From assembly GCA_964503755.1 (NCBI GenBank), contig CAZDBO010000001.1, positions 200,926 through 264,925 on the forward strand: a stretch of 64,000 nucleotides of DNA, given 5' to 3'. Positions 22,945 through 55,090 of this stretch are shown piece after piece. Within the stretch, counting starts at the first letter, position 1, and each line of letters begins with the position of its first letter. The translations under genes and the position numbers were made by a program. Under the pieces are notes generated by a model that had not been told where the DNA came from, ran no database searches, and saw nothing but the letters and a program-made list of their open reading frames with translations. The DNA is from an uncultured Candidatus Saccharibacteria bacterium (GTDB lineage: Bacteria > Patescibacteriota > Dojkabacteria > JAOAGR01).

Positions 22945-22947
22945 ATT

Positions 22948-23523
22948 ATGCAAACCTCAACAAACAAAATAAAAACAATTAAAAAAATAATTAATTTGAT
23001 TTTCTTTTTTATAATTTCCGTACAGTTTGTAATTTATTTTAATAATGCTTTTACTGTTTTTGCAAATACAACACCGACTGATACGTGTGATATTAATTGT
23101 TTGAGACAACGACTTGGTCTTGTTGATGATCAAGGTAACAGTACAGTACAAGATACTTTTGGACTTTTAGAGCCTAGAGATCCAAATGATTTTATTATAT
23201 TAGTTTTTCAAATACTTCTTTATGCTGCACTAATTATTGCTGTTGGCAGTATAGTTTTTGCAGGATATAAGATTGCTGGAGCAGGGGATAACGCTGATGA
23301 GAGAAAAAAAGGTTTTGATAAGTTAGTTTGGTCAATAGTTGGATTTGTTTTATCTATTTTGTCACTTACAATTATAAATTTGATTTCATCTTTTTTTGGA
23401 TATCAATTTGATGGAAATATAACTGAACAACTTTGTAGAAATTTACAAAACTATCCTAATCCGGATCAGGAGTTGGTAGATGAATGTAACAGGAGGTATC
23501 CCGGTTCATTTACCCCACCCTAA
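22948..23523 (+). CDS. secreted two-helix hairpin membrane protein, paralogue B
   Basis: 191 aa. Signal peptide, a Cys pair (DTCDINC), helix 1, the loop AGAGDNADERKKG, helix 2, and a C-terminal tail with a second Cys pair. Confidence 0.6.
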   Translation: MQTSTNKIKTIKKIINLIFFFIISVQFVIYFNNAFTVFANTTPTDTCDINCLRQRLGLVDDQGNSTVQDTFGLLEPRDPNDFIILVFQILLYAALIIAVGSIVFAGYKIAGAGDNADERKKGFDKLVWSIVGFVLSILSLTIINLISSFFGYQFDGNITEQLCRNLQNYPNPDQELVDECNRRYPGSFTPP

Positions 23524-23832
23524 TACTAACACAAGAGGTGGAAGAGGTGGTATACCGACTATGCAACCGACGTAAAGTCTGTTTTGTTTTTCTGATATAT
23601 CAAATAGAATTGAGTGACTTTCAAGATTGTTTTAATATACAAGCCTCCTTTGTATATAGCAGTTATTTTACGTTATTAATATTGGTTATTTAAACAGGTT
23701 GAATATGTGGGTATAAGAATATAAATTATTTCTATCTGTGGTAAAATTAATTTGAAGTATTTTATATACGATGATTTGTAATACCAATGACAATTTGTTA
23801 GTCTTGTAATTTCAGAAAATCTAATATAAAAT

Positions 23833-24384
23833 ATGACTAATATGTCAAATCAAAACAAATTAAAACAAATAATATTTACTTTAATAATTTCTACTTTTTT
23901 ATTTGCTTTTGTCGCATATCCAGTAAATGCTCAACTTGCTAATGTTTTTCCAACACCATTCGGCGGAGACGGTAGATTGGATTTAGGTGCTATAGTTACT
24001 TTCTTTTTTAATATTGTGCTTTATGTAGCTTTGCTCTGGGCTGTATGGCATATTGTTTTGGCTGGCTTTACTATAACTAAAGCCAAAGATAATGCAGACG
24101 AGAGGAAGAAGGGTATAGATGCTATAATCAACGCTGTAATAGGTTTGGTGGTTGCTTTATTGGCTTTTGTCATAGTTAGCGTTGTTACAAATTTCTTAGG
24201 CGTAAGTGTTTATCAGCTTGAAATATCATCTGTACCTTGTACTGGAAGAACAGCTAATGGTGAAGTATTTCCTGGTTTCCACCCTCAGGGACAAAATGGT
24301 ATAGATTATAATACCTGTGCAACTAAGGATGGGAGAAAAACAGGTTCTGTAATACGTGGTGGTACGTCTATACCTAGACCATAA
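23833..24384 (+). CDS. secreted two-helix hairpin membrane protein, paralogue C
   Basis: 183 aa. Signal peptide (...PVNA/QL), helix 1, the loop TKAKDNADERKKG (identical core motif to paralogue B), helix 2, and a Cys-containing C-terminal tail. Confidence 0.6.
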   Translation: MTNMSNQNKLKQIIFTLIISTFLFAFVAYPVNAQLANVFPTPFGGDGRLDLGAIVTFFFNIVLYVALLWAVWHIVLAGFTITKAKDNADERKKGIDAIINAVIGLVVALLAFVIVSVVTNFLGVSVYQLEISSVPCTGRTANGEVFPGFHPQGQNGIDYNTCATKDGRKTGSVIRGGTSIPRP

Positions 24385-24431: not shown

Positions 24432-24508
24432 GAGCCATTAGCTCAGTTGGTTAGAGCACGGTGCTTATAACGCCGGGGTCGCTGGTTCAAATCCAGCATG
24501 GCTCACCA
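24432..24508 (+). tRNA. tRNA-Ile with anticodon TAT (UAU); body resembles tRNA-Ile2
   Basis: Acceptor GAGCCAT/ATGGCTC, D-arm TAGCTCAGTTGGTTAGAGC, anticodon stem CGGTG/CGCCG with loop CTTATAA, T-arm GCTGGTTCAAATCCAGC, then CCA. Confidence 0.75.
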
Positions 24509-33453: not shown

Positions 33454-35391
33454 TTATGAAGCTATTAGTGTCATAAATTCGTCCTGTTCGATAACTTCTT
33501 TTTCTAAAAGTGTTTGCGCTATCTTATCTAGTTTTTCACGATTTTTGATGATTATTTCTTCTGCAGTTTTTCTTGCTTTTTCAAGAATTTTTGCTATTTC
33601 TTCATCAATTTTTTTTGCTGTTTCTTGAGAATAAGTTAGATGTCCGATGTCGTCATGACTATATTCTACGTATCCCAAGCTACTCATCCCGTATTTTTTC
33701 ACCATATCAGAGGCAATTTGTGTGGCTCTTTTTATGTCACTACTAGCTCCTGTTGTGAAAGTGTTAAATACAATTCTTTCTGCTTCACGGCCTCCGTACA
33801 AACTTGCAAGATCTGCTTCAAATTTTTCTATTGTTCTTAGAGAATATGCTTCTTCATCAGGTATAAAAATAGTAGCTCCACCCGAGTCTCCTCTTGGAAT
33901 TATAGAAATACGGTGTACAATATCGGCTTCTGGTAAATGATAGCTTACCAAGGCATGCCCTGCTTCATGATATGCAACTATCTTTTTGTACTTTTCTGAT
34001 TTAGTTCGATTTTTTGCTGGTCCTAAAATAACTTTGTTGATAGCTTCTTCTATATCTTCTTTTTCTATTGTTTGTCGATCATGTTTGGCCGCTATTATCG
34101 CTGCTTCGTTTAAAACATTTTCCAAATCAGCACCACTATATCCAATAGTTCTTTTGGCTAAAGTTTCTAAATCTATCTCATGACTTAAAGGCTTATTTTT
34201 TGCGTATATTTTTAGAATTTCTAATCTACCATTCATATCTGGAAGATCTAATACAACTCTTCTATCAAATCTACCTGGTCTAAGTATTGCAGGATCTAGT
34301 ACATCTGGCCTATTAGTTGCAGCTATTACTATCACATTTGTATCTTTCTGAAAACCATCCATTTCGACAAGAATTTGATTTAAAGTTTGATCTGTATTTC
34401 CTGAGTGTATTATTGTTCCTCTTTTTTTGGCTATAGAATCAATTTCGTCTATAAAAATAATTGATGGTGCCATCTTTTTTGCTTTCGTGAAAAGATCTCG
34501 AACTCTAGATGCTCCTGCTCCTACAAGCATCTCTTCAAATTCTGATCCTGATGTAAAAAAGAATGGTACGCCAGCTTCACCTGCAATTGCTCTTGCTAGT
34601 AGTGTTTTTCCTGTTCCAGGAGCACCGACAAGTAGTACGCCTTTCGGAATCCTTGCACCCATTTTGATAAATTTTTTAGGATTCTTAAGGAATTCAACTA
34701 TTTCTCTAACTTCATTTACAGCTTCGTCTACACCTTTTACATCGTCAAATTTGACATCCTGCATTTTTGCGGTAAATAATTTGGCTTTACTTTCACCAAA
34801 AGGCAAACTTGCAGCTGAATTTGAGATGTTTTTTGCTGAGTATATTATATAAATGATAAAGCCTAATATACCTAATGTGCTAATAAGGGATATTATGGAA
34901 AAAAGATTGAATTCACTTGCAGGTACAGCATAAATATTTTTTTGGGTAGGATCTATACCAGCTTTTCTTAGATCTTCAAAAAAAGTTATCGTATTGGGTA
35001 TATTTCCTTCTATTTTTTGATTATCATTTTTAGTTATAACAACTTTTTCAGGATGCACCTCGACTTTAGAGTATTCTTCTTTCTTAATAACTTCTATGAT
35101 TGTGCCGTAATCTAGATTGTTTAAGCTGTTGATATTATAAATTTGTAATCCAATTGTAAAAACAAACAAAATTATTACAGTAATAATGATAGGATTTTTG
35201 TACCAAGGTACATTCTTTTTGAATGGACGGATGATATTAGATTCTGTTGTTTTACCTTGCTTAGTTTCTGGATCTGTATTTGGTTCTTGAGTAGGATTTT
35301 TTCTTTGATTACTAACCTTAAAATATTTTTCTTCTACAGATTCTGGTAGACCCGAATTTGGCTTGCGTATATTTTTATTTTTAAGTTTCAT
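33454..35391 (-). CDS. ftsH: ATP-dependent zinc metalloprotease FtsH
   Basis: 645 aa with N-terminal TM helices, the AAA module [18 protein letters not shown], and HEAGHALV. Confidence 0.92.
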
Positions 35392-35471: not shown

Positions 35472-37610
35472 ATGTACAAACTTTCTACTTTTTTGTTAAG
35501 TTTGTTTATTATTATGGGATCTATATTTTTGGATGTTGTAAATTCGAAGATAGCAGCAGAAGAAAACAGCAGTGCACATAAAAAGATTTCTATAATAGAA
35601 ATTAATTGGGCGGGTAGTAAAAGATCATCAAATGATGAATGGATAGTACTTAAAAATCTTACAGATGAGGATATTGATATCACAGGATATAAACTTTTTG
35701 GTACACGACGTGGAGGGGGGTATTTTGAGTTGACTGGGATTGTAAGAGCGAACGATGTATTCGTTGTTAGTAGATATAATCGGAGCGATCCTAATACAGT
35801 AATTAATGTGAATTCTAATTTTGTTAGCTCTTCTTTTTCTATTTCAAATGCAGCTTTAAATATAAGGTTAGACGATTCTAATGGTCAAATTGTAGATAGT
35901 GTAATAACTACTACCAAGCCAAAGGTAGGGGATAATTCTTCAACTTCTGGTACGTATTTTGCCATGAGTAGGATTAATCCATTTAATGATGGAAATGATC
36001 TAAATAATTGGAGGAATGCAGATAAAATTTATGTGGTGCAAATAGTTGAAGATGGTGTTTGTAGAAATTATATTGGTTATTCTGAACTTATTGGAAAGGA
36101 ATTTATTGATCCAACTGATTTGTGCGAAGGAAATACAATAAGTCCAAATGAGACGATAAATTTAGAGTTTTACACTCAAACTAATAGTTTAGAAATCCAA
36201 ATAAATGAAAATACATTAAGTTCCGATAACATCAATACAAATTTGTTTAGTGTAACAGTAAATAGTATGTTTGGCAGTACGAATGTTGTTGATAGTATAG
36301 ACTATGTAAATGCAAGATATTTATCGCAAAATTCTAGTATTTTCGCGTATCGTTTCAACGACTATATGGGATCTGAATACTATAAAGTTTCTACTCAAAT
36401 TAAAAATATAAGTAATTTTGAATGTTTAATAGATAAATTAGATTTTTTTGTAGATACAAATGTAATTAATCAAAGACTTTTGATTAATCAGTTTAATATA
36501 CATGAAAATGTTAATAATTATCAAAATAACATGTTTAGTCTTTTAGGAAATGATGAATATATCGAATCTATAACGCCTATTAATCAGATAATAAAGGATC
36601 AAGATCTAATGATTTACATTGATAATCTAAACTTAGAAAACTACAACTCAGGTTTTATAGAAATTGGTACTCAAAGAATTCCATTGGTTCAGTTTGTAAA
36701 TAACAATAAAGTGACATTAAATAATGTCAGTACAAATAAATTAATTCTAGATCTAAAACAAGATGAGTTGGCAAGTTTTGCTACTATAAATATCGAATTA
36801 GTAGGTCCAAATTATATTGGCGATTTACCATTTGATGTTAGCGAATACATAAATTCAGAAGTTACCACAGAAATGATTAATAACACAATTAAGTTTACAA
36901 ATGAAAATTATTCTCATATTTTAACATTTGAAAAAAATAACCTTTGTGATAATTATTTTGCAAATATTTGTAATATTAGTTTAGTATTTAGATTGGAAGA
37001 AAACACCCTATCATCAGATCAAAATATCCTAAAAATAAAGTATGGTACGACCGATCATAAAGTATTTAACGAAAAAATATTTAGATTTGCTGATTTTAAT
37101 CAAAATCAGATAGAAATTAACTTTTCGTTTACAGAAAATATAAATAAACTGCAGATATATTCTTATAAGCCAATTTATTTAATACAATATCGAAAATTCT
37201 TGTCTAACCAACCTAATAATCTCTTTGAAACTGATTTTGAGAGTATTGAAGGACTAAATATAAGTCAAGGATATGAAAATTCTACTACCGAGATGAGATG
37301 TAGACCCGTTTATTTTGATATGATTTATTTGACTCCAGATTCGTCTTATATCACATCGGTCAACATAAATGGATTATCAAAATATCGTAATTATAGTTTG
37401 GTCAAAGTATATTTATTTGATAATCAAGGTAAAGTAATGTTAGATGAAAAAATTACAGAATCCGAACTTAGAAATGGAAAATACGAAACAGTTCCGGTTT
37501 TGATTGATAATAATTTAAGATCTTATATTTATTTAGTACAAATTTGTGATTATTCTAATCAAAGCGTACCTTACTGGGATAATATAGAAATTCAGTTTAC
37601 AAAAAAATGA
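35472..37610 (+). CDS. large secreted protein with an N-terminal lamin-tail-domain (LTD)-like module
   Basis: 712 aa with a signal peptide and ...ISIIEINWAGSKRSSNDEWIVLKNLTDEDIDITGYKLFG..., resembling the LTD consensus (INE..., EWIEL.N, DLSGW.L). The rest is Asn-rich and unrecognised. Confidence 0.5.
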   Translation: MYKLSTFLLSLFIIMGSIFLDVVNSKIAAEENSSAHKKISIIEINWAGSKRSSNDEWIVLKNLTDEDIDITGYKLFGTRRGGGYFELTGIVRANDVFVVSRYNRSDPNTVINVNSNFVSSSFSISNAALNIRLDDSNGQIVDSVITTTKPKVGDNSSTSGTYFAMSRINPFNDGNDLNNWRNADKIYVVQIVEDGVCRNYIGYSELIGKEFIDPTDLCEGNTISPNETINLEFYTQTNSLEIQINENTLSSDNINTNLFSVTVNSMFGSTNVVDSIDYVNARYLSQNSSIFAYRFNDYMGSEYYKVSTQIKNISNFECLIDKLDFFVDTNVINQRLLINQFNIHENVNNYQNNMFSLLGNDEYIESITPINQIIKDQDLMIYIDNLNLENYNSGFIEIGTQRIPLVQFVNNNKVTLNNVSTNKLILDLKQDELASFATINIELVGPNYIGDLPFDVSEYINSEVTTEMINNTIKFTNENYSHILTFEKNNLCDNYFANICNISLVFRLEENTLSSDQNILKIKYGTTDHKVFNEKIFRFADFNQNQIEINFSFTENINKLQIYSYKPIYLIQYRKFLSNQPNNLFETDFESIEGLNISQGYENSTTEMRCRPVYFDMIYLTPDSSYITSVNINGLSKYRNYSLVKVYLFDNQGKVMLDEKITESELRNGKYETVPVLIDNNLRSYIYLVQICDYSNQSVPYWDNIEIQFTKK

Positions 37611-40895: not shown

Positions 40896-43800
40896 ATGGA
40901 AAATTCTAATTTTAGTAGCAAATTCTCAGGTATTTTTATTAACAATTTGCGATTTACGTTTATTACTTTGATATTAATTGTTTTATTGGGAGTGTATGCA
41001 GTGTTAAATCTTGTACCTACAGGATTTCCACAGCCAAGTGTAAACTTGATTAACATAGCCGCCACTTATCCTGGTGCTAATACTAATGTTGTTTTAAACA
41101 ATGTTACTGTTCCCTTAGAAAACGTTGTAACTAAATATTATTCTGATGTAGATACATACTCATCTACTATTAATAATGGATTTACAAACATTATAGTAAC
41201 ACCTAAGTTTGGTGTAGATGTAGAGGAATTAATTACTAAGATTGAAAACGATGTAGAACAACTTAATTTGCCAGAAGTAGTAGATGTTAAAGTTTCCAAG
41301 CCAGAGTTTCCTTCTGTTGACTTCGTTATTGCGATTTTTTCCGAGAATAGAGAAGAACTATACGTGAAATATAAAGAGTTTTTAAGGCAAGCCAGATCAA
41401 TGCCAGAAACTGATTCTGTAATACCACAGGTAGATCTCAAGCAAATAGTGGATATCAAGCTAGATGAATCAAAGCTAAATCAGTATAGAATCAGCACTAA
41501 CGATATAAAGCAAGCAATATCAAATTATGAGTTCAATATTCCTATAGCTCAAAATATAACTGTAGATAATTCTCAAACATCTTTTATATTAAATGGTTCA
41601 GATGTAGAGAATTTGGATCAGCTTTCGAATGTGGTCATTCGAACGCAAAATAATCAGTTAGTAAAACTAAACGAAATCGCTGATCTTACATATAGATATG
41701 TTTTTACAAATAGCGAATTTCCTAGTCTAGCTTTTGACGATAATCCTACATATTTTGGTTTTGTTCAAAATGATAAAAATTTGACAAAAGAAGCGATACT
41801 TTTAAATTATTCTGCTGCTGGAGGATATTCTATCGAAGAAGTACAGAATAAAATATCAAATTTACTGAAATATATTGGTTTGACAAATATAGATAATAAT
41901 GAAATCTCTAGAGAAAAAATTTATTTTGAAATTCCATACTCCGCAAGTGCCGTTTCTAAAAAGCAGATAGATGAGGTCGTAAACGGTCTTTTGCAAGGTG
42001 CAATTTTAGTTTTTTTGGTAATGTTCATTTTTGTTTCTTGGAGGGCTGCTATTATTGCGACTTTGGGTATACCGGTAAGCTTAATTTTTGCGTTAATTTA
42101 TATATTCTTGACTGGAGATGAACTAAATACTTTAGTACTTTTTTCTCTAGTATTAGTTGTTGGACTGGTTGTGGATCCTGCTCTTGTGATTCTTGAGGTT
42201 TTACAAAGAAAATTAGACGCTGGATTGAGTAAGTTACAAGCTGTAATAGAGTCAATCAAAGAAGTAGGTGATGGACTTTTAGCATCAACCGTGACTAATA
42301 TTATTGTATTCATTCCTTTTGCAGTTGTATCAGGAGTACTTGGACAAATATTTGGCTATATACCAAAGACAATAATACCAGCAATTGTTGGTTCTTATGT
42401 TGTTTCTGTGGTGTTTTTAGCAATATTTGGTGGAATGTTTCTTGCTAAACGTAGAAAAAAGCAAAATGAACAAGTTGAAGATGAAGAGTATGCATCTATA
42501 TGGCCAATATCAAAAAAGGTAGAAGAAATAAATAGATTTATTTTGAATTATCATAATAAAATAAAAAATAAATTTGTTGCAGGTTTGATACAAATCACTA
42601 TTGTAATCGCTTCTATTGTTGTTCCTTTGGCAATAGTTGGATATCTCTTCGGAACCGGTCAGCTTAGATCTACCCAATTTACTCAAAACAGAACTGGATC
42701 AACACTGAATATACTTCTTGACAGACGTTCGGATATATCATCCGTAGAGATAAATCAACTAACTAAGCAAACTATAGAATTTATAGCAAGTACGGGTTTA
42801 TTTGATAATGTAACACCATTTAGTACACAGATAATTGCATCACTAAAAAAAGACTATCAAAATACTGCATTAGAAAAAGCTCAGGATCTGAGAGAACTTC
42901 TTGTAAATAAGTTCGGTGACAAATATCTTGATATAAATGTTGTGGTAGGTGGTGGAGCTAATACGACAAATAGCTATCAGGTTAATCTGGCGATAAGGTC
43001 AGATGAAAATCAGAAATTAATAGAGTCATCAAATATTTTTGCCGAGAATATAAAAAGTAATCTTTGTCAAAATAATAAAAATTTATATTGGGATGAAAAT
43101 TGTGAAGAACAAAATAGCGTTATAGAAAAAGTAGATAATGGGATTGATGGAAGATTACAAAATCAGATCAAGATTACTCTTGATATACAAAAGGTATTGG
43201 AGAACAATTTAAGTATACCTGGTACTCCATTATTTAGTTTTGTATTGTCACAATTACAAAAACAATTTCCTAAATCTCAAATTACAAATGTTTCAAATTT
43301 TAACAATATTGATGAAACAAAAGTATATACAACTATTAACTTGGATAAAGATGTAAATTTGAAAACATTAGATGATGTTAAAAATATAAATATCGTTTCG
43401 CCTCAAGGCGTTATCTTCAGGTTAAGTGATATTGCAAATGTGGAATTATCACAGATAAACCAAACAGTAACACGTTTTGAAGGTAAAACCGCCAATCGTA
43501 TCAAAATAAGATTAAAAGAAGAGTTTAGGTTAGATCAGGCTTATGCATCTAGAGTGGCGAATTTTATTGTACAAAAGTATTCAGAAGACAATTATAAATT
43601 AACAAGGGAATTAGGATTAGAAAACGAAGCAATTTATATAGATAGATCCGGAGCTAGTGCTGAATTTGTGCGTGGATTTACTGAACTTTTGACGGCATTT
43701 GTGTTAAGCATATTTTTGATATATGCAGTATTAGTTGTACTTTTCAAATCATTCTCTATGCCCATCGTGGTTATATTTACGATTCCTTTATCCTTTATTG

Positions 43801-44201
43801 GAGCGTTTTTGGGAATAAAATATTTTGTTGGTCCTGAATTTGGATTTTTAGAAATTATAGGACTGATTATATTGGTTGGTATTGTTGTAAATGTTGCAAT
43901 ATATATGATTGATTTTGCTAATCAAAAGACAAAAGAAAACGGTTGGGATGATAAGAAAGCAATTATTTATGCATCAGCCGTAAGATTTCGACCTATATTT
44001 TTAACAACATTCACTTCTATTACTTCTTTGGTACCGTTGTATATTAATAGCGATTTTTATAAATCTATATCAGCTGTTATTATTGGTGGTTTGTTTACTT
44101 CGACTATTATCTCTTTGTTTGTTGTACCTGTATTGTATGTATGGATTAATAGAATGCGTAGAAAAATACACAAGATTTTTCATAGGATATCTTTGAGCTA
44201 A
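40896..44201 (+). CDS. RND-family efflux transporter permease (AcrB/HAE-like)
   Basis: 1101 aa with 12 TM helices and two large external loops. The N-terminus (...LVPTGFPQPSVNLINIAATYPGANTNVV) parallels AcrB (...[23 protein letters not shown]). Confidence 0.78.
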   Translation: MENSNFSSKFSGIFINNLRFTFITLILIVLLGVYAVLNLVPTGFPQPSVNLINIAATYPGANTNVVLNNVTVPLENVVTKYYSDVDTYSSTINNGFTNIIVTPKFGVDVEELITKIENDVEQLNLPEVVDVKVSKPEFPSVDFVIAIFSENREELYVKYKEFLRQARSMPETDSVIPQVDLKQIVDIKLDESKLNQYRISTNDIKQAISNYEFNIPIAQNITVDNSQTSFILNGSDVENLDQLSNVVIRTQNNQLVKLNEIADLTYRYVFTNSEFPSLAFDDNPTYFGFVQNDKNLTKEAILLNYSAAGGYSIEEVQNKISNLLKYIGLTNIDNNEISREKIYFEIPYSASAVSKKQIDEVVNGLLQGAILVFLVMFIFVSWRAAIIATLGIPVSLIFALIYIFLTGDELNTLVLFSLVLVVGLVVDPALVILEVLQRKLDAGLSKLQAVIESIKEVGDGLLASTVTNIIVFIPFAVVSGVLGQIFGYIPKTIIPAIVGSYVVSVVFLAIFGGMFLAKRRKKQNEQVEDEEYASIWPISKKVEEINRFILNYHNKIKNKFVAGLIQITIVIASIVVPLAIVGYLFGTGQLRSTQFTQNRTGSTLNILLDRRSDISSVEINQLTKQTIEFIASTGLFDNVTPFSTQIIASLKKDYQNTALEKAQDLRELLVNKFGDKYLDINVVVGGGANTTNSYQVNLAIRSDENQKLIESSNIFAENIKSNLCQNNKNLYWDENCEEQNSVIEKVDNGIDGRLQNQIKITLDIQKVLENNLSIPGTPLFSFVLSQLQKQFPKSQITNVSNFNNIDETKVYTTINLDKDVNLKTLDDVKNINIVSPQGVIFRLSDIANVELSQINQTVTRFEGKTANRIKIRLKEEFRLDQAYASRVANFIVQKYSEDNYKLTRELGLENEAIYIDRSGASAEFVRGFTELLTAFVLSIFLIYAVLVVLFKSFSMPIVVIFTIPLSFIGAFLGIKYFVGPEFGFLEIIGLIILVGIVVNVAIYMIDFANQKTKENGWDDKKAIIYASAVRFRPIFLTTFTSITSLVPLYINSDFYKSISAVIIGGLFTSTIISLFVVPVLYVWINRMRRKIHKIFHRISLS

Positions 44202-44586: not shown

Positions 44587-45834
44587 TTATTCATATCTTA
44601 ATGCATCTATTGGATTCAATCTGCTTGCTTTTAGAGCGGGTAGAGTACCAGCTAAAAATCCTATTATCATCGTAAATGCGTTTATGATCAAAAGAAGTTG
44701 AATATCAAAAACAAAAACCTGAAATCCTTCTAGGGTTGTTTGAAAAATATTTATGAATAAATAATTTAAACCATTACCTATTAGTACTCCCACAAGGATT
44801 CCAAATATTCCACCCCATAATCCTAATAAAATTGCTTCTATCGCAAAGAGTAAAAATATTTCAAAGCTTGTCATACCTAGTGCTTTCAAAAGACCAATTT
44901 CGCGGGTTCTTTCATAAACTCCCATAAGGATAGTGTTGATTATTCCTATACTGCCAGCAATTATGACTATTATTGCAAACGCATTTAATATTAGTTTTAA
45001 TATATTTAGAACGTTTCTAATTTCGTTTATCGCTTCATCCCAAGTAACACCGTTAAATCCTATTTTTCTTAGTTCATCTTTGGTTTCTTTTACAGAATTT
45101 TCGTCTGTTTTGTCTAAAACACCTATGATTTCAAACGAACGTTGATTTTCTCCATAAATTTCATTGGATATATCTGTAATTTCTTTATAACTCAATCTTG
45201 TTATACCGCCTGCTAGAGAATTTATGAGTACACCGGATATTTCATACTCTCTTTCAAAGATACTTTCATCTTGTTTTTTATAACCGATTTTTATTTTTGC
45301 ACCTATGCCTTCTTCAGAATCCTTAAAACCTAAAGGAGAAAGATAATTATATGATAGTAAAATTTTGTCTTTTTCTTCGGATGACGGGATTTTGCCTGCA
45401 GATACGGGTATCTCTACTTCATCAATAATAGAGCCGACTAGTTGCACTTCGTATTTTTCATTACTATCACGATAAATATACTCAGGAAATAAATTGTAAA
45501 GTTTATAAACTTTTTTAATATTTGGAATATTTTCTATTTTTTGTATATCTTCATCAGATGTTATGGTTGGTGTTCTATTCACTCTTTTTTCGGGATCATA
45601 TTTTCTTACTTCGAGAGGATTATCAGTAACAGTAATAGGTGATATTCGTATAGTATTTTGAGAGTTAATCGAGTTTACTTGTGCGTTTACATAAGTTTGA
45701 ATCCCATCACTTAGGGCATTTGTCAAGGTTAGTGTTAATGTACCAATCGATAAAGCTAATATTGTAAGAAAACTCCTTAATGGAGCTCTAAGCATGTTTT
45801 GTTGAGAAAGTTTGATGATATCAATTAGTTTCAT
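44587..45834 (-). CDS. ABC transporter permease, FtsX/MacB-like
   Basis: An N-terminal TM helix, a large external domain, and a C-terminal FtsX-like four-TM bundle. The start is placed at MKLIDIIKL (45834), directly after the stop of the ATPase gene. Confidence 0.72.
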   Translation of the reverse strand: MKLIDIIKLSQQNMLRAPLRSFLTILALSIGTLTLTLTNALSDGIQTYVNAQVNSINSQNTIRISPITVTDNPLEVRKYDPEKRVNRTPTITSDEDIQKIENIPNIKKVYKLYNLFPEYIYRDSNEKYEVQLVGSIIDEVEIPVSAGKIPSSEEKDKILLSYNYLSPLGFKDSEEGIGAKIKIGYKKQDESIFEREYEISGVLINSLAGGITRLSYKEITDISNEIYGENQRSFEIIGVLDKTDENSVKETKDELRKIGFNGVTWDEAINEIRNVLNILKLILNAFAIIVIIAGSIGIINTILMGVYERTREIGLLKALGMTSFEIFLLFAIEAILLGLWGGIFGILVGVLIGNGLNYLFINIFQTTLEGFQVFVFDIQLLLIINAFTMIIGFLAGTLPALKASRLNPIDALRYE

Positions 45835-45836
45835 AA

Positions 45837-46499
45837 TTATTCTATTATTCCATCTTTTATTTTCAATATAACATCGCATTTGTTAGCGATATCAAAATCA
45901 TGAGTAACAATAATCAGTATAGTTTTATGTTTTCTATGTAGTTCAAATAGAAGATTAATTATTTTTTCTCCGTTTTCAGAATCGAGGTTTCCTGTTGGTT
46001 CGTCAGCAAAAATGATTTCTGGCTCTGTAATGAGAGCTCGAGCGATAGCTACACGTTGTTTTTGTCCTCCTGAAAGGTTTATCGCTTTTTGATTCATTTG
46101 ATCTGTTAAGTTGACTTCTTCTATTATTTTTCTAGATTTTTTGTCAATGTCTTTATAAGATTCACCTCTAATTATTAAGGGAAGTTCGATGTTTTCTTTT
46201 ACAGTTTTGTTTGGTAAAAGAAAAAATTGTTGAAATATAAATCCGATTTTACGATTCCTAAATAGCGTTCTCTTGTTTTCCGAATATAAACCTATATTTT
46301 GATTATCATAAAAAACTGCACCATCTGTTGGTGTATCTAAACCAGCCATGATGTGCATAAGGGTAGACTTTCCAGAGCCAGATTTACCGACAATACCATA
46401 GGATCTTCCTTTTTCAAATGTGCAGCTTATGTTTTTCAATACTTGAATAAAATTTTTACCATCCTTGTAAGATTTGGAAAGATTAAAAATTTTTATCAT
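45837..46499 (-). CDS. ABC transporter ATP-binding protein (MacB/LolD-type)
   Basis: Walker [17 protein letters not shown], signature [15 protein letters not shown], and Walker [13 protein letters not shown]. Confidence 0.85.
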
Positions 46500-46581
46500 T
46501 ATTGCATTATATAAGATTTATAAATTATATACGATACATTTTGGTTGACGCGATGTAATTAAATGAATAAGATTTTTTATT

Positions 46582-46875
46582 ATGAAAAAGATATCAAATT
46601 TGACAAAAGAAATGATTAACGGATTCAACTATAAAATTTTAATAATCTTCGTAGCATTGATAATTTTTACTCTTGTTCTAACAACATTTGTTTTATATTT
46701 TCGAGGACGACAGTACAATTACACAACTTTGACACAAGAGCAGAATTATGAAGATACAACTTCGAAACTTGGTAATAATCAACATGAAAACAATTCAAAT
46801 GATAATCTACGTTCAGAATTAGAAAAAAAGTTTGTAGAAAAATTTGAGACGTATGTGGGGTTAGATTGGCAGTAG
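46582..46875 (+). CDS. small N-terminally anchored membrane protein (hypothetical)
   Basis: 97 aa with one TM helix. Confidence 0.35.
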   Translation: MKKISNLTKEMINGFNYKILIIFVALIIFTLVLTTFVLYFRGRQYNYTTLTQEQNYEDTTSKLGNNQHENNSNDNLRSELEKKFVEKFETYVGLDWQ

Positions 46876-46899
46876 TATAATAAAATTTTTGGAAATAAA

Positions 46900-47526
46900 T
46901 TGTACAATTCTCTGAATTCTTATTTGTTTTCTGGATGTGATGTAAGCTTGATTAGTGATTATACAAACGAAATTGTAAATTTGTTGAATTATCGTGATAT
47001 TATTTATGATTATTTTGAAATAGAAAAGAATAATGCAAATCAGATTTTATATACAAATTGTTCCCTAGAATATTTGGATAAATCGACGATATTGGATATG
47101 CCGGTCAAGGATTATGACTATTTGATAGATTATGTATTCAGAATACCATAAATAAGCGATTTTAAAGATGGCTTAAAAGTAGATTATGACTCTTTATTAT
47201 CAAATGTATTGGAGCAAATCATTGGAACGCAAGCAAACTCTAAAATATTGAGTGGAGTTAATAATTCGGTTAACTATGCCAAAATGGTTCTTTATCCAAA
47301 AGATTCTACACAAAAGTTTAGAGTAAGTTCTGTCCATTTTTATGGTTTGACATATGATCCTTATGTTGTAAATTATACAGTTGATCGACATATTGATGGA
47401 TATTTTCAGGCTGCTGATATTTTTAGTGGTTATTATTATTTTTGGTTTAATAATCCAGATGTTAAATTTGGAATAAAAGATAATGATTATAAACTTATTT
47501 ATGACCAAAAAGATGATATGTATTAA
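46900..47526 (+). pseudogene. single reading frame interrupted by one in-frame TAA (47152); possibly a disrupted gene or two small ORFs
   Basis: ORFs 46900..47151 and 47209..47526 share a frame. The 54 nt between them has no other stop. Confidence 0.3.
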
Positions 47527-47788
47527 AGGTTGAATACACATTTGATGATAATTTCGATTTAAAGAAAGTAAGTTTAATTTTGCAAAATTCAACAAATCAA
47601 TCGGAGATAGAATTAGTTACTTTTTTATGTAAAAATAGTAATATTTCTTTTGATGATATTGAACTGAAATACAATCAATTAATTTCAGAATTTGAGAATA
47701 AATTGAATTTTCGTTCGTATGACTTTGGTAATCTTGACGATATTAAATATCATACTTTTCAAATGTAGCATCGAGAATTCCTTTCATC

Positions 47789-48769
47789 ATGATTGATGAT
47801 AGTCCTGTTTTGTATCAATTTTATGAAAGAGATGGTAAATATAACAGATATATAGGCGAAATCTACAATATACAACTTAAAGGTTCAAATATAAACCCTA
47901 TACAAATTTCGGGAACTTTGTTTCTTTTTATACAATCAAAAGATTTTGATATATCATACAATCCAAATGGTGTTGGTTTAATGAATAGTTGTGGCAGTTA
48001 TACTTTGTTTTTGGAAGGTTTGGGAAATATAGAGTTAGAATGCAGTGAATCAAATATAGAATTAAGTGATGAATATAAAAATCGGTTGATAAGTGAAAAT
48101 AAAAGTTTTCATACCTATAAGATTAAAACAGATATAAGTACTAGATTAGGATACAAATCTGCTGATATTTATATATATCCAAAATCTTATGAGGCTGAAA
48201 AGAAATTAGAAGAAAAAAAGATAAAATTAAGATTATTAAATACAACTGAGGCTAAAAAGTTCGATGAAAAATATAGAGATATAATTCATGTATATAATGC
48301 CAATATTAATCCAATTTCTACGTATATATCTAAAGAAAAATTAAGGACAAATTTAGTATTTAAAGAAGATTTTAACGCATTTTTTAGTAAATTTTTTGAA
48401 TCTAACGATAACCAAAAAAACTGCTACGCATTTTTTGATAATGTCAATAAATTTGATGCAACATTGTTTAATATATTAGAAGTTCGCGATATCGAAAGGT
48501 ATTTTCTAAAGTGTGCCGCTGGTATATTTAATGGTTATCATTTAACGTTGCAAGATAAACAAAATGAAAAAGATCGTTTTGAAGTCTATGTGATTAACTC
48601 AAATGAAAAGACGGAGAAAATTATAAACTTTTATATCAATTCTGATTTGTATAAAAGAGATGAGAAGATAAGAGGTATGGAATATAAAAAATTTGGCGAT
48701 ATATACATATTTATTTATAGTGAAGATGCAAAGGATAAAGTAATCGATGTTTTGATAATATTCAGTTAG
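47789..48769 (+). CDS. hypothetical cytoplasmic protein
   Basis: 326-aa ORF with no signal peptide and no recognised motif. It may be the 3' part of a longer disrupted gene (see findings). Confidence 0.4.
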   Translation: MIDDSPVLYQFYERDGKYNRYIGEIYNIQLKGSNINPIQISGTLFLFIQSKDFDISYNPNGVGLMNSCGSYTLFLEGLGNIELECSESNIELSDEYKNRLISENKSFHTYKIKTDISTRLGYKSADIYIYPKSYEAEKKLEEKKIKLRLLNTTEAKKFDEKYRDIIHVYNANINPISTYISKEKLRTNLVFKEDFNAFFSKFFESNDNQKNCYAFFDNVNKFDATLFNILEVRDIERYFLKCAAGIFNGYHLTLQDKQNEKDRFEVYVINSNEKTEKIINFYINSDLYKRDEKIRGMEYKKFGDIYIFIYSEDAKDKVIDVLIIFS

Positions 48770-48809: not shown

Positions 48810-49328
48810 ATGAATGAATTGTTTGAAAATTTTTATCAAAATACTTTTTCAAAGGCTTATAAGTATTTATATATTCGCATCAATAACGTAGGTGACATAG
48901 AAGATATACTGCATGATGCATATCTCGTTTTTTATGAAAAATATAGAGAAAAACTTCATTCCACCGAAGGTGAAAAGATTTTATTTGGTATTATCCAAAA
49001 AAAATACATTGATTATATTAGATCAAAATATAGAGAATATGAAAATATAGAGTATATAGATAATCTGTCAGAATACAACCCAATCATAATTTCTCAATTA
49101 GATTTAACACATTTAGAAGAAAAAATTAAAGATTATATCTACAAGCTAGAAAAGAAATATCCAAAGCTTATGATTGTTTTACGTATGCGAATTTTGGATA
49201 AGATGAGTAGAAAAGAGATAGCAGAAGTTTTGGGTATTAGTGAAGATAATGTGCATACATATCAAAAAAGAGCCGTATCTATAATAAAAAAATTAATTAG
49301 TAATGAAAAAGATGATGACAAAAAATAA
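48810..49328 (+). CDS. ECF-type sigma-70 family RNA polymerase sigma factor
   Basis: 172 aa. Region 2 is ...ILHDAYLVFYEKY..., and the region 4 HTH is ...MSRKEIAEVLGISEDNVHTYQKRAVSIIKK... Confidence 0.72.
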   Translation: MNELFENFYQNTFSKAYKYLYIRINNVGDIEDILHDAYLVFYEKYREKLHSTEGEKILFGIIQKKYIDYIRSKYREYENIEYIDNLSEYNPIIISQLDLTHLEEKIKDYIYKLEKKYPKLMIVLRMRILDKMSRKEIAEVLGISEDNVHTYQKRAVSIIKKLISNEKDDDKK

Positions 49329-51963
49329 AAATAAAAAACTGTACCCCCACGACGATATATATAGTGAAATGGATCAAGTTGAACGAAAAATTGAAGACAT
49401 TCTTACATCTGTTCTGGCTAATACGCCAACAGATGAGGAAATATTATCTGCGCAGATAAGAATAAAAAATCAACTTGTCCATTCGATAAATAAAAAATCT
49501 ATGGACCAAAAAAAATTTGTAGCTCAAGTATGTCCTGAAGAAGGATCAGCTACACAAAGTCATAATGTTCAGAATTCTCAACCAAACAATAATATATTCA
49601 TGAATTTTTTACAAAATAAGCCGTTGGTCATATTTTCTACATTGACATTAATTACAATTATTACACTGTCAGGAGTGGGGATTTATTATTTGAATTCTGG
49701 TAATAATAATCGATATTCTTCTACGGAAGTTTCTAAAAATGGACAGAAAAATGGTGATATTGTTACATTAGCAAAGGAAAGGTTTAGACAGTTATATGGT
49801 ATTGAATATGATGATTATGTAAAAATAGCATCAAATGTGTCTGCACCTTCTAACACGGCAGAAAATTTCAGAGATATCATAGCACCTACAGGTAGACCGG
49901 GATCAAGACAAATAATGGCTAAACAGAGTGCGGGAGTTCAGAGTATTTTGGATAATGTTGATGTGACACGAAATAAAGGTGCGCTTTATACATACACAGT
50001 GGATTTGCATAAAGCCGATTATACAAAATATATGGATGTTTATATACCAATAGATACTCCTTATGTAGCACTACAAGATTTTATGCGTTATCCTGAAGCA
50101 AAATATGAATACTATGTATCTTTATACTCTACTGGAGCTCTGGTGCAGAGAGATCAGGATGTACTATATGCTTATATTTCTTATGTATCTAATCAGGGAG
50201 ATGATTATAATGTAAAGACATTGGAATATAAGAATGGTAAGTTTGCTTTAGAAGGTAACTATATTCATCCAAAAACTTTTTATGAAGGACAGAATATTTC
50301 TTATATACAATTTACGCCTGACTATATACTTTTGCAAAAACTGGAAAGTAAAAATGAAAATGTAAAAGATTTAGGAGTAAAAGAAATTGATGGGGTAAAG
50401 TATCGTGTTATAGAGGAAACTATTAATGTATTAGGTCCTGTATACACACCACCTGTTCCTTCTGAGATGTTGAATGGTGAGGAGCCAGTTGGTTATCAAA
50501 CAGAGTCTGAGATGATAATTAAAAAGACATATTATGTAAATCCTGACACTACGCAAATAGTGAAAGTAGACTTTAGTGAGGGAGAAGATCTTTTGTTTAG
50601 CATAAAATATGAAACAAATAAAATCGTCGAAAATAGTGATATTCAGAATAAGTATAATGATGTTAGAAATGTTATTAATAAATTAGGTAAGGAAATTAAA
50701 ACATTTGATTTTGGAGCTGTTTACGACGTTAGCTCTTATCCGAAATTAGCAGATTTTGTGAAAAAGTATCCAACGCTTAATTTTGATACTGATAGAAAAG
50801 AAAGATTGAATTTTTATGATAATGACAGTGAGGTAGGACGATTGTATAATGAATACTTTAGATTGTACTTTTCACAAGATTTTGATCCAGCATCCCAAAA
50901 TTCATATGGACAGTACGAAGAGGGCTTACTTGCTTATTTCAGTTCTATGAAGGTATCAATAGAGTATTATAAATCTGGTGCACAGCGATCCAATATAGTT
51001 TGTACCGGTAAAAAATCTGCTATTAATATAAAGAATACAGGTACATTTGAGACGGAGGTTTGTAAATATTCATATGATAATGTAATGACTATACAGCCTG
51101 AAAAGAAAGAAGGATCAACAAATTTATTGCCACCACATTATGAACAAATTATTTACAAACTGAGTCAAAAAATAGGATCATATTCATCATATGATATTTA
51201 TATCTCAGTTAATTCGCCGGAAGATCATAGTTTTGATTTTGTACTGATAAGTGAATCGGCAGCTAAACAGTATGATGAAGAAATAAGTCAAATTACCACT
51301 ATGGAAACTGTGTCTTATGGTGGACAAATAGATCAATCGAAAGTAGATACATTTATCGCAACTCCGGTAGATTTTGTGAAAAAAGAAAATTATAGTGTGT
51401 ATGATAACACCTTTAAATCTCCATATTACAGTAAAGAAGAAACTTGTATTACACCTTTAAAAAATGCACAAAATAATCCAAGATTGTTAGATTATCTTTA
51501 TATGCAGCACAAATATGTACTTGATTGTTTGGCATTAGTCGGTGATGGATATATATTGAGTTATTATGCATATGAGCCATCAATGTACGAGATGCCAGCT
51601 ATATCTGAAACAGAAGCACAGAATTCTGATAATAGAGTTACACAAATTGGGCAATCAAGTTTTGATGTTTATATTTTCAAAAAAAATGATTTTACTTCAT
51701 CGATTTTGGAGTTTTATATAACTTACTTAAATAATCAATTTGGTCAATTTGAGGAGAAGGAGTATAAAAAATTCTTGCCAGTTTATAAGGGAGTCGATGG
51801 ATATATTGTAGTAATAATTCGATCTATGTTTTGGTCTTCTTCTGAGGTGGATACTGATTTTGAGGAAAAAAGAAATAGATTATTAGACAATATACGCATC
51901 TTAAATGAACAAGAAAAAAAATTATTCTTTGATAAACTTCATGGTGTCGAAAAAGACAAATAA
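49303..51963 (+). CDS. membrane protein in anti-sigma-factor position, with a large extracytoplasmic domain
   Basis: 886 aa. It overlaps the sigma gene by 26 nt. It has roughly 105 cytoplasmic residues, one TM helix (PLVIFSTLTLITIITLSGVGIYYL), and about 760 external residues of unknown fold. Confidence 0.5.
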   Translation: MKKMMTKNKNKKLYPHDDIYSEMDQVERKIEDILTSVLANTPTDEEILSAQIRIKNQLVHSINKKSMDQKKFVAQVCPEEGSATQSHNVQNSQPNNNIFMNFLQNKPLVIFSTLTLITIITLSGVGIYYLNSGNNNRYSSTEVSKNGQKNGDIVTLAKERFRQLYGIEYDDYVKIASNVSAPSNTAENFRDIIAPTGRPGSRQIMAKQSAGVQSILDNVDVTRNKGALYTYTVDLHKADYTKYMDVYIPIDTPYVALQDFMRYPEAKYEYYVSLYSTGALVQRDQDVLYAYISYVSNQGDDYNVKTLEYKNGKFALEGNYIHPKTFYEGQNISYIQFTPDYILLQKLESKNENVKDLGVKEIDGVKYRVIEETINVLGPVYTPPVPSEMLNGEEPVGYQTESEMIIKKTYYVNPDTTQIVKVDFSEGEDLLFSIKYETNKIVENSDIQNKYNDVRNVINKLGKEIKTFDFGAVYDVSSYPKLADFVKKYPTLNFDTDRKERLNFYDNDSEVGRLYNEYFRLYFSQDFDPASQNSYGQYEEGLLAYFSSMKVSIEYYKSGAQRSNIVCTGKKSAINIKNTGTFETEVCKYSYDNVMTIQPEKKEGSTNLLPPHYEQIIYKLSQKIGSYSSYDIYISVNSPEDHSFDFVLISESAAKQYDEEISQITTMETVSYGGQIDQSKVDTFIATPVDFVKKENYSVYDNTFKSPYYSKEETCITPLKNAQNNPRLLDYLYMQHKYVLDCLALVGDGYILSYYAYEPSMYEMPAISETEAQNSDNRVTQIGQSSFDVYIFKKNDFTSSILEFYITYLNNQFGQFEEKEYKKFLPVYKGVDGYIVVIIRSMFWSSSEVDTDFEEKRNRLLDNIRILNEQEKKLFFDKLHGVEKDK

Positions 51964-52005: not shown

Positions 52006-52392
52006 ATGGTAAATGAAAAAACAAATCAAATAAACAAAAAAACAATACTTTTAATAGTGGCGATCATATTGACTCTCATTACTGGATCTATCATTTCATA
52101 TTTTTATTTTCAAAACTTATCTAGAGTATCAAATAATGTTAACAACAGAGAATTGGATAGCTTTAAAAGTAGTAATAATAATGTTGAAAATATCGAAGAT
52201 TTAACGGATGACAATTTAGACTATAAAAATCCATTTTTGGATATAGAAAAAACTGATTTAGAATTTGATGACGGTTTTAGTACAATAGAAGATATTAAGA
52301 ATAATATTTTAAATTACGTATTTGGTGATACAGAATTTAGAAATGATAATTTTTATAATTTAATTTTGATTCGATTAACATTGCTGTTATAG
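52006..52392 (+). CDS. N-terminal, TM-anchored part of a probably frameshifted gene
   Basis: 128-aa ORF. Its last roughly 12 codons (...NFYNLILIRLTLLL*) look like out-of-frame read-through. The adjacent frame is open from 52359 and continues into ORF 52563..53396. Confidence 0.4.
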   Translation: MVNEKTNQINKKTILLIVAIILTLITGSIISYFYFQNLSRVSNNVNNRELDSFKSSNNNVENIEDLTDDNLDYKNPFLDIEKTDLEFDDGFSTIEDIKNNILNYVFGDTEFRNDNFYNLILIRLTLLL

Positions 52393-52562
52393 ATAAATAT
52401 GATGTTAATCCTTTTCTAACTCGTTTAGATTTAGCAAGAGAGATAGATGTAACAGACTACGAAGAGAATTTTGTTGAAATAAATTATACTTATAGAGAAA
52501 CTAATAGTACTAATTTTAAGTTTAGATGTACGCAAATTCTGAATGTTTATTTAATAGCGAAT

Positions 52563-53396
52563 GTGTGTAGAGAGTCGAGTAATCGTATTGACTTAGAGAA
52601 AAGCAATTTACATTTTGTGAAAAAATCCGCAGGCCAGATCACCCATAAATTTGTAAAAAGAGTTAATGAAAAGGACGCAAGTTATCAATATGTAATTGAT
52701 CCTTATCCGTACTATAATGTTTTACTCTATAACCTATTTCAAGAATATGCTTATGTTTATGTAAATGATGATGAGACGACAATCGATAATAGTGCCAATA
52801 AAATTATTGTAAAGACTAATGTCGATGATATGGAAGTCGTTTATGATAATCCAAAGGTTTTTCAAAGCAATAATGAAGAGGCAGAAAAATATTTTGATAT
52901 GATAATAAACGAACTACTAAGGCAAGATGCTATCATTAAAGTTGAAAATAATTATATTTTTAATATAACTGAATTTGTAAAAAAATATCCAGTTCTAGTA
53001 CTACAGGGTCAATTTAAAGAATTTGGATACTACAGTGATTTTAAAAGAGGCGTGGTAAATTTAACTTATGAAAATTCTGGTAGATCTGTTAGGATTATTT
53101 CAGAATTCTATAATTCTGGTAGCCAAGGAAATGTAAATGTAAATTGTTCTGAAGCGAACGGTACAAATCAAATAAAAATAAATGATAAATCATATGAAGC
53201 TATTGTTTGTAGAGGTGATAAAATAGCGGGTAATGTCGTAAAAGTAATAGGTGTGAATGGATATGATATATATATTCAAGCCGTTGATTACTCTATGAAT
53301 CCTGACGAAAAGATTTCTGTTGATCTAATGTCAAGAGAGTTTAGATTTATGACGATAGATGAGGCACCGCAATATGAGATGAAGGTACGAGAATAA
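52563..53396 (+). CDS. C-terminal part of the same probable frameshifted gene (hypothetical)
   Basis: This frame is open from 52359, about 200 nt upstream of the first start codon. The upstream in-frame translation looks protein-like (DKYDVNPFLTRLDLAREIDVTDYEENF...). Confidence 0.4.
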   Translation: MCRESSNRIDLEKSNLHFVKKSAGQITHKFVKRVNEKDASYQYVIDPYPYYNVLLYNLFQEYAYVYVNDDETTIDNSANKIIVKTNVDDMEVVYDNPKVFQSNNEEAEKYFDMIINELLRQDAIIKVENNYIFNITEFVKKYPVLVLQGQFKEFGYYSDFKRGVVNLTYENSGRSVRIISEFYNSGSQGNVNVNCSEANGTNQIKINDKSYEAIVCRGDKIAGNVVKVIGVNGYDIYIQAVDYSMNPDEKISVDLMSREFRFMTIDEAPQYEMKVRE

Positions 53397-53420
53397 TAAA
53401 TTAACATTATTAAAAAATAA

Positions 53421-53448
53421 AAGGCAGGAATTACTTCCTGCCTTTTTG
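53421..53448. terminator. bidirectional rho-independent terminator between convergent genes
   Basis: aaggcaggaa-ttac-ttcctgcctt forms a 9-10 bp stem, followed by TTTT. It lies between the stop at 53396 (+) and the ilvE stop at 53471 (-). Confidence 0.7.
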
Positions 53449-54551: not shown

Positions 54552-54643
54552 GGCTCAAGGTTTTCATTCATTAATATTTTGAGGGTAAGACTTATCGTTA
54601 TACAAATACGAGATATAATTTTTCGCTGAGAATATTTAACAGT

Positions 54644-55090
54644 TTGAAGAAAGTATCATCTGATGATTCGGATCCTAACACTTATTCTGAAACTTTTGGA
54701 TCTGCAGATGGAAAAACTGCTTTATCAATTATATATAGTAAAAATACATCGGGTACCACCGATTTAAGAAATATATATAGTGTATTGGATACAGTGGAAG
54801 AAAATCAGAATTCATCAGAAACAAACATTGCCGTGAATTGTAGAGTGGAAAAAGTAAAAATTGATTATGTAGCTTGTCAGTATGTAAATGCATTATCTAA
54901 TGGAAAATATGCTTATGTAATACAAACCATTATACCTGATCAAAGAGATTTTGACGGTGTAATAGATTTGACTGGTTTATTTTCATTAGAAAGTCCAGAT
55001 GAAGCACAAAATCTCCTGAGGAATGAAAGTTTTTTAACATTTGGAATTAGCGTAGAAGTATATTCTGTGTTTACTATTGAATTTAATTAA
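54644..55090 (+). CDS. hypothetical protein
   Basis: 148-aa ORF with no motif. Confidence 0.35.
   Translation: MKKVSSDDSDPNTYSETFGSADGKTALSIIYSKNTSGTTDLRNIYSVLDTVEENQNSSETNIAVNCRVEKVKIDYVACQYVNALSNGKYAYVIQTIIPDQRDFDGVIDLTGLFSLESPDEAQNLLRNESFLTFGISVEVYSVFTIEFN

Follow-up and report, generated by a model that had tools for sequence, protein, structure and literature searches.

At positions 48810 to 51963 of the window (the whole stretch of DNA that was analysed, 64,000 nucleotides of an uncultured Candidatus Dojkabacteria genome of the candidate phyla radiation (CPR); contig CAZDBO010000001.1) two genes of the forward strand directly follow each other. The first encodes a 172-residue sigma factor of the extracytoplasmic function (ECF) type (48810..49328) and the second a large single-pass membrane protein, hereafter the partner (49312..51963). 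A preliminary description of this DNA had proposed that the two form a sigma/anti-sigma-like signalling pair, and a check of the open reading frames (ORFs) bears out both genes at the positions it had given them. In the reading that we consider best, with a probability of roughly 0.6, the pair consists of an ECF sigma factor and its cognate single-pass membrane regulator.

How secure is the assignment of the first gene? The 172-residue protein scores 49.5 bits against the NCBIfam model TIGR02937 for ECF sigma-70 factors (cutoff 42.9; residues 3–161), and 30.7 and 25.3 bits against the Pfam models Sigma70_r4_2 and Sigma70_r4 (cutoffs 25.7 and 24.1, respectively). Pfam Sigma70_r2 taken alone stays below threshold (12.3 versus 24 bits); the sigma2 domain is spanned by the TIGR02937 alignment and appears as three helices at residues 3–73 in an AlphaFold2 (AF2) model, with predicted local distance difference test (pLDDT) scores of 74–91. 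This model, computed with four homologues as input (overall pLDDT 76), contains two helical domains, sigma2 at about residues 3–73 and sigma4 at about 99–165, which are joined by a disordered linker of some 20 residues (76–97). Regions 1.1 and 3 are absent, and at 172 residues the protein is shorter than about 200. In a Foldseek search the best 27 PDB matches of the model are ECF sigma factors, SigH, SigL, sigmaE, SigW, AlgU and BldN, with full-length alignments of 160–180 columns and a probability of 1.0, and the sigma4 part superposes on region 4 of sigmaE and on SigD4 with TM-scores of 0.7–0.85. The best PDB match by sequence is SigW, and the nearest NCBIfam subfamily models are of the Bacteroidetes type, SigX (second-best) and BldN, all far under their cutoffs. 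Because profile matches are joined by an AF2 model that has ECF structures as its top PDB matches, the protein can securely be called a genuine two-domain (sigma2–sigma4) ECF (group 4) factor of the sigma-70 family, as had been claimed.

Three start codons come into question for the partner. From the ATG at 49303 it would have 886 residues and overlap the sigma gene by 26 nucleotides (nt); from the ATGATG at 49312, the start chosen by NCBI and kept in frame throughout the close relatives, it has 883 residues and overlaps by 17 nt; and from the ATG at 49369 (Met23) it would not overlap at all, so that the 26-nt overlap reported earlier holds for the first of these starts only. The partner is a type II membrane protein, and its topology agrees well with the earlier outline of about 105 cytoplasmic residues, one transmembrane (TM) helix and an outer domain of about 760 residues: about 105 hydrophilic residues precede and about 755 follow the helix at residues ~107–131. 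The cytoplasmic N-terminal segment (residues 4–106 in the numbering of the 886-residue form; 49312..49620), a candidate sigma-binding domain, is predicted in a low-confidence AF2 model to form two long helices (~17–37 and 44–76) and carries the conserved pattern KIE..L...[TD]..E....[VI]...L..IN. The single TM helix (49621..49695) gives the sole peak of its kind in the partner on the Kyte-Doolittle scale (2.1 at residues 109–127, 19-residue window). Beyond it lies the extracytoplasmic domain of about 755 residues (49696..51960), with an unrecognised fold and the juxtamembrane motif LAKERF.QLYGIEYDDY. All four invariant cysteines of the partner (C567/C587 and C715/C742) are found in the C-terminal part and the only cytoplasmic one, C77, is not conserved, which fits an N-in, C-out topology. 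No part of the partner has a Pfam, NCBIfam, PHROG or PDB sequence match, and a Pfam scan of the ectodomain in five members at E≤10 was equally negative. Structure prediction of the external domain, suggested earlier as a check, gave no usable fold, the AF2 model of the partner from a three-sequence alignment reaching a pLDDT of 31. A LolA/RseB/DUF4367-like identity of the beta-meander at residues ~228–440 was considered and dropped, as there were no consistent weak Pfam or PDB matches across five members.

Relatives of the pair and selection on its genes

A word-indexed search of 5.8 billion proteins returned the partner itself and two orthologues at 65% identity, and an exhaustive hidden Markov model search of 1.84 billion representatives returned only P0003 and P0005, of which the fragment P0005 was newly added (E 6e-7). 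P0005 is the sole distant homologue of the ectodomain; the contig that encodes it (L004) ends at 1410–1455 in an Illumina adapter (AGATCGGAAGAGCACACGT), and its C-terminus is for this reason an assembly artefact. Among species-representative genomes the closest is a metagenome-assembled genome of Candidatus Dojkabacteria (JAOAGR010000002.1).

The loci compared comprise close relatives (L001/L002/L005 and L003/L007) and two distant lineages (L006 and L008). In the close relatives a sigma gene (69–72% identical) is followed by a partner gene (65%) with the same overlap. In L006 the sigma homologue P0008 is 37% identical, and 13 nt further on starts the gene of a 598-residue protein that is a distant homologue of the partner (hhalign E 3.6e-6), the homology taking in the juxtamembrane motif and the cytoplasmic and TM helices. 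The sigma factor of L008 is 30% identical and has the same ITEDNVHTYQKR signature; the ORF after it, cut by the contig end, encodes a 47-residue helical head and a TM helix, and the head aligns marginally to the pattern KIE..L...T..E....V...L..IN (1 of 60 shuffles scored as well). In each lineage that yielded either gene with sufficient flanking sequence, sigma and partner stand next to each other, and both genes are intact in all lineages compared. A further locus from the metagenome scan, L009, proved to hold an unrelated ECF sigma factor that had been caught through a short peptide pattern, and elsewhere in the 64-kb window no further paralogues of the sigma factor or of the membrane family were found.

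The ratio of nonsynonymous to synonymous substitution rates (dN/dS) is 0.08–0.11 for the sigma gene and 0.14–0.16 for the ectodomain, with a dS of 1.2–2.4; the TM helix is 88–100% identical between lineages (dN/dS 0.00–0.05). Sigma factor and partner are thus under purifying selection while adjoining membrane-protein genes decay. Compared with their L001 counterparts, the window's sigma factor and partner are 72% and 65% identical and the ATPase and permease of a nearby ATP-binding cassette (ABC) transporter 90% and 84%, so that the signalling pair evolves much faster than this conserved neighbour. Could the pair itself be a decaying remnant that appears conserved merely because the compared genomes are close kin? 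In favour of this, three genes next to the pair have become pseudogenes or lost part of their length in this genome, and the family is extremely small; but with both genes intact everywhere at this level of synonymous divergence and with a dN/dS of 0.08–0.16, and with intact pairs found also at 30–37% sigma identity, we disfavour this explanation and regard it as highly improbable.

The transporter, of the MacB/FtsX type, is a neighbour of the pair in each of the three deep lineages. It occupies 44587..46499 of the reverse strand in the window (ATPase 45837..46499, permease 44587..45879; Pfam ABC_tran, FtsX and MacB_PCD), divergent from the pair and beyond a gene for a 736-residue membrane protein; L006 has it immediately beside the pair, likewise divergent and with an ATPase 45% identical to that of the window; and in L008 an FtsX permease gene stands directly upstream of the sigma gene.

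A motif and a constrained 5′ region at the gene junction

The junction of the two genes in the window contains the 10-mer TGTACCCCCA (49340–49349), and 16 nt after its TGTACC follows TAGT, which together make up a candidate ECF-type promoter or operator (49340..49365, forward strand). The 10-mer has its sole copy in the 64-kb window here, and GTACCCC likewise occurs just once when both strands are counted, at 49341, 12 nt past the sigma stop codon. TGTACCCCCA is present at the orthologous junction in L001, L003, L005 and L007. A copy at 1498 of L008 lies in the sigma–partner spacer, and one at 1266(+) of L006 coincides in part with the final codons of the sigma gene and stands 32 nt ahead of the partner ATG. 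L006 has two extra copies, 679(−) and 711(+), which are placed back to back between the ABC-ATPase and sigma genes, each 46 nt from, and facing, one of the two start codons. All independent copies fit TGTACC-N16-T[A/T]GT, with a spacer of N17 in L008, and face start codons 29–55 nt away. Matches to TGTACC-N15-17-TxGT at 40119, 45739 and 11192 of the window are without the C-run and were set aside as probable chance matches. Because of its geometry, its gene-directed orientation and its restriction to these loci, the motif is best read as a candidate promoter dependent on the ECF sigma factor. SigX-type promoters of B. subtilis have the form TGTAAC-N17-CGAC. They share with the motif a bipartite build, a TGTA(A/C)C −35-like element, a spacer of 16–17 nt and a short −10 element with GT/AC at its end; they differ from it in that the −35-like block here runs into C5 (TGTACCCCCA) and the −10-like element is T[A/T]GT, not CGAC.

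Overlapping the motif, in the first ~200 nt of the partner gene, is a region of synonymous constraint and predicted conserved RNA structure (49346..49554, forward strand). Over partner codons 4–78 dS falls to 0.24–0.28 versus 1.2–2.4 elsewhere, and at residues invariant in three lineages the codons are identical in 76% of cases versus 44% in the ectodomain (Fisher p 3.6e-5); three-way nucleotide identity peaks at 49325–49400 and 49430–49530. The structured region has the lowest folding z of 67 windows across the block (−4.9) and, compared with shuffled sequences, a z of −4.0 (0 of 200 shuffles); the orthologous region of L001 gives −3.0. A long-range stem is predicted between ~49366–49383 and 49469–49487, together with inner hairpins. 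The consensus structure keeps 97% of its pairs and has four compensatory ones, a result reached by 13 of 500 shuffles, with slid controls pairing at about 40%. Within the region lies an invariant 16-nt palindrome, TTATCTGCGCAGATAA (49444–49459); the window has just one other GC-containing perfect palindrome of at least 14 nt. A search of Rfam with the structured region gave no family and a sub-threshold match to algC (E 0.7). Overlapping small ORFs were rejected as a cause of the synonymous constraint, only trivial ones of 26–31 residues being present. With three sequences compared, the structure and the constraint together are to be taken as a lead.

Such features invite a different explanation, namely that TGTACCCCCA and the structured 5′ region act at the level of the RNA or through another DNA-binding protein and not as a sigma promoter: they may constitute a processing or translational element that sets the sigma:partner ratio, or the palindrome may be the operator of an unlinked repressor. 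The 10-nt conserved core is indeed longer than a usual −35 element, the motif of L008 forms the loop of a GAAGTG/CACTTC hairpin, the two copies of L006 make an inverted repeat, and in the window's clade strong predicted structure, synonymous constraint and the perfect palindrome all lie downstream. However, the copies face nearby start codons, in one case on the opposite strand toward the ABC operon, and the constant 16-nt gap to T[A/T]GT is promoter-like, so that the arrangement is strand-specific to the gene and not to the transcript. In addition, the L006 homologue does not have the RNA structure (z +0.4), which therefore cannot explain the wider conservation of the motif. We consider an action on RNA or through another protein doubtful, and prefer to read the motif as a candidate promoter.

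The partner as a candidate anti-sigma factor

Most anti-sigma factors are particular to one group, and a single TM helix is usual among them (Casas-Pastor et al., 2021, PMC7826278). In its layout the partner agrees with a class I anti-sigma factor, as its gene stands directly after the ECF gene, is co-conserved with it in five lineages and encodes a single TM helix. A class I anti-sigma domain (ASD; zf-HC2/RsiW/RseA/RskA) is not recognisable by profile in its N-terminus. Neither protein has a Pfam or NCBIfam match to the RsgI_N domain or to a SigI-type sigma factor, no FecR domain was matched by Pfam in the ectodomain after the TM helix, and the partner has no match to DUF4179 of the DUF4179/RsiV-type anti-sigma factors. 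A large-database search with a profile of the N-terminal core gathered nine candidates, and 0 of 9 scored. The preliminary description would have given up the pairing if the N-terminus had neither anti-sigma similarity nor co-conservation with the sigma gene. The similarity was not found by Pfam, by a PDB profile search or as an HxxxCxxC motif, whereas the co-conservation is evident in five lineages, and what stands of the proposed sigma/anti-sigma pair is accordingly the identity of the sigma factor and the conserved linkage, not the anti-sigma resemblance of the N-terminal ~100 residues. Since the tests for named families came out in this way, the partner is described as probably an anti-sigma factor or sensor of an undescribed sequence type, distinct from the zinc-associated anti-sigma (ZAS), RskA, FecR, RsgI and DUF4179 types.

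Several observations weigh against a sigma factor paired with its membrane regulator and a promoter of its own. Pfam scans of the N-terminal 102–133 residues of three lineages at E≤10 gave irrelevant matches only, a profile of four N-termini compared with all PDB chains gave coiled-coil matches only, and the cytoplasmic segment has no HxxxCxxC zinc motif of the ZAS subclass. The N-terminal segment also has the highest dN/dS of the gene (0.3–0.6), partly because dS is depressed there. No gene for a site-1 or site-2 protease is present in the window, where the sole membrane protease seen is FtsH (33454..35391). As to the promoter, the motif lies inside the annotated coding region in the window's clade, transcription from it would begin in the window at or just past the ATG at 49369 (Met23), no copy is found upstream of the sigma gene in this clade, and the support for a promoter comes from three deep lineages and from geometry alone.

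Moreover, an N-terminus without an anti-sigma signature would equally suit a partner that is not a regulator of the sigma factor but its main target or cargo, a surface or envelope protein such as an adhesin or a cell-surface enzyme of an episymbiotic CPR cell. The partner would then be co-transcribed with the sigma factor and in addition driven by its promoter, the neighbours would be sister surface proteins, and the sigma factor would be controlled otherwise. In keeping with this, the outer domain has its kin in a small family of local surface proteins, and the two members that flank the pair are without a long cytoplasmic head; the motif, moreover, immediately precedes the partner gene or lies within its 5′ end, where a target gene would have it. 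Against it speaks the distribution of the cytoplasmic segment. Members that are not encoded directly after a sigma gene (the 736-residue and a 435-residue protein of the block, and P0005) have cytoplasmic tails of only ~12–27 residues, and a helical extension of 50–105 residues is confined to the sigma-linked members, in which its pattern is kept at 30–37% sigma identity. This restriction is the best available argument for a role in binding the sigma factor. Furthermore, the position directly downstream with tight spacing or overlap and the single TM helix are a typical anti-sigma layout (PMC7826278), and this copy was retained with the sigma factor while its neighbours decay. A partner that is only a target is in our estimation unlikely.

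How might a membrane regulator of this build work? The cytoplasmic head, of a type outside the current anti-sigma profiles, would hold the sigma factor inactive at the membrane until a signal perceived by the outer domain, possibly envelope damage or a ligand derived from the surface or from a host, frees it, probably by proteolysis or by a conformational change. The freed sigma factor would then transcribe from TGTACC-N16-T[A/T]GT promoters. Within the clade of the window the one such site, at the partner start, could provide negative feedback or a separately regulated partner transcript with a structured 5′ end. In L006 the motif before the sigma gene would allow autoregulation, as is usual for ECF sigma factors (Casas-Pastor et al., 2021, PMC7826278), and its presence also before the divergent MacB-type ABC operon points to an exporter as what the module originally controlled. 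Of the envelope- or host-contact-sensing regulon that the preliminary description had envisaged, this motif before the ABC genes of one relative is the sole trace.

Comparison with known systems yields likeness in architecture and difference in sequence. Like sigmaE-RseA of E. coli, SigW-RsiW of B. subtilis and AlgU-MucA of P. aeruginosa, the pair combines a two-domain ECF sigma factor with a regulator gene immediately downstream, whose product has a helical N-terminus in the cytoplasm and a sensing domain outside, on the two sides of one TM helix. Unlike RseA, RsiW and MucA, the partner has an N-terminus without ASD, zf-HC2 or RskA similarity or HxxxCxxC, in which two long helices (low-confidence model) are predicted and not a four-helix bundle; its outer domain of ~755 residues is an orphan, and no proteases of regulated intramembrane proteolysis were identified nearby. 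An anti-sigma factor combined with ABC transporters is known from ECF258, a Firmicute group (Casas-Pastor et al., 2021, PMC7826278). ECF30 and ECF258 with their DUF4179 proteins resemble the locus in grouping an ECF sigma factor with a single-pass protein of anti-sigma-like build and, nearby, an ABC transporter; here, however, neither DUF4179 nor another Pfam domain is present in the partner, the phylum belongs to the CPR, and the transporter is of the MacB/FtsX type and is in the window's clade split from the sigma gene by the inserted membrane-protein gene. Control of a dedicated sigma factor by a large outer domain of a membrane anti-sigma factor that binds a ligand is also the concept of SigI-RsgI of cellulolytic clostridia and of FecI-FecR, from which the pair differs in the absence of matches to RsgI_N, FecR or carbohydrate-binding modules and in a sigma factor that is a generic ECF and not SigI.

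The surrounding block and the meaning of the pair

The pair is embedded in a block whose first gene is preceded by a sigma-70-like promoter, TTGACG-N17-TAAGAT (46545..46573, forward strand), which is conserved in three lineages. Five ORF fragments at 46582..48769 of the forward strand are pieces of this one gene for the 736-residue single-pass membrane protein with a short cytoplasmic tail, intact in L001 and L005 and fragmented in L007 too; tblastn, with matches in frames 1, 3 and 2, locates an in-frame TAG at 46873, an in-frame TAA at 47149 and two frameshifts. The 736-residue protein bears a weak similarity to the partner (BLAST E 9e-6 at residues 612–828, in a small local database; hhalign E 0.015, probability 2.9%). 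On the other side of the pair lies a frameshifted copy of the gene for the 435-residue single-pass membrane protein (52006..53396, forward strand), intact in L003, whose family matches partner residues ~480–640 (hhalign E 3e-5); the module common to both reads FVKKYP...C-x19-C...YDIYI. The preliminary description had spoken of disrupted lineage-specific ORFs, and disruption by stops and frameshifts is confirmed, although the term decayed neighbours fits them better: they are remnants of genes for single-pass membrane proteins of a similar sort, and two of them partly resemble the partner. An alternative genetic code was rejected as the origin of the broken ORFs, the in-frame stops being TAG and TAA and not TGA and the long ORFs ending mostly in TAA. 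A GC-rich hairpin between the convergent 435-residue-protein and aminotransferase genes (53419..53446) is likely a bidirectional terminator that closes the block.

Further downstream about 2.4 kb of L001 (15182–17594), directly 3′ of tRNA-Ser(GGA), are missing at 54552–54640 of the window, which leaves the C-terminal ~150–200 residues (54644..55090) of a gene for a 459-residue membrane protein with three TM helices; this loss next to tRNA-Ser is possibly a deletion or an excised element. The MacB-type transporter on the opposite flank adjoins a full-length transporter of the AcrB/resistance-nodulation-division (RND) family (40896–44201; ACR_tran, E 4e-105), which is conserved in L001, L005 and L007; no membrane-fusion or outer-membrane component was noticed near it, though no search was made for one. 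Three consecutive small genes at 22519–24384 (141, 191 and 183 residues) each match Pfam T4SS_pilin (PF18895) and are probably the triplet of hairpin proteins mentioned in the preliminary description. At 24432–24508 lies a tRNA-Ile with the anticodon TAT (UAU), a rarer route of reading AUA than the lysidine-modified CAU tRNA. A 712-residue protein (35472–37610), whose sole match is to the Lamin Tail Domain (LTD, PF00932) close to its N-terminus, is likely another large surface protein. The G+C content is 25–37% in 1-kb windows, mostly 26–33%, and the housekeeping genes in the window are those for ClpB, GatB, YidC, MurG, PNPase, MreB, L1/L11, FtsH and ThrRS. A phage origin was rejected, since PHROGs gave only a generic sigma match and the neighbours are housekeeping genes.

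What does the pair mean for these organisms? The layout of a sigma factor with a membrane partner is known; the shared motif with its constrained and structured surroundings, the co-conservation, the ABC neighbourhood and the explanation of the disrupted ORFs are new. A full-text search of a collection of papers on anti-sigma factors in Patescibacteria or Saccharibacteria, or on a sigma factor in Dojkabacteria, found nothing relevant, and regulation in CPR/Patescibacteria is almost unexplored. At its most far-reaching, and quite speculatively, the locus could be a CPR-restricted module that combines a new two-helix class of anti-sigma factors (KIE..L...T..E....V...L..IN), an orphan surface domain of ~755 residues that possibly senses contact with a host or with the envelope, an ECF sigma factor with an unusual TGTACCCCCA-N12-TAGT promoter, and control through a structured 5′ mRNA. 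If this were true, the structured 5′ mRNA would be a second, post-transcriptional layer that has not been described for sigma/anti-sigma operons; otherwise the pair would add one to the great number of ECF/anti-sigma pairs whose regulator is group-specific and unannotated. That the pair was retained under purifying selection amid gene decay points to a stimulus which these reduced organisms must still perceive, and a candidate promoter together with a likely output, the MacB-type exporter, offers a tractable entry via heterologous ECF reporters into the regulation of an organism that is uncultured.

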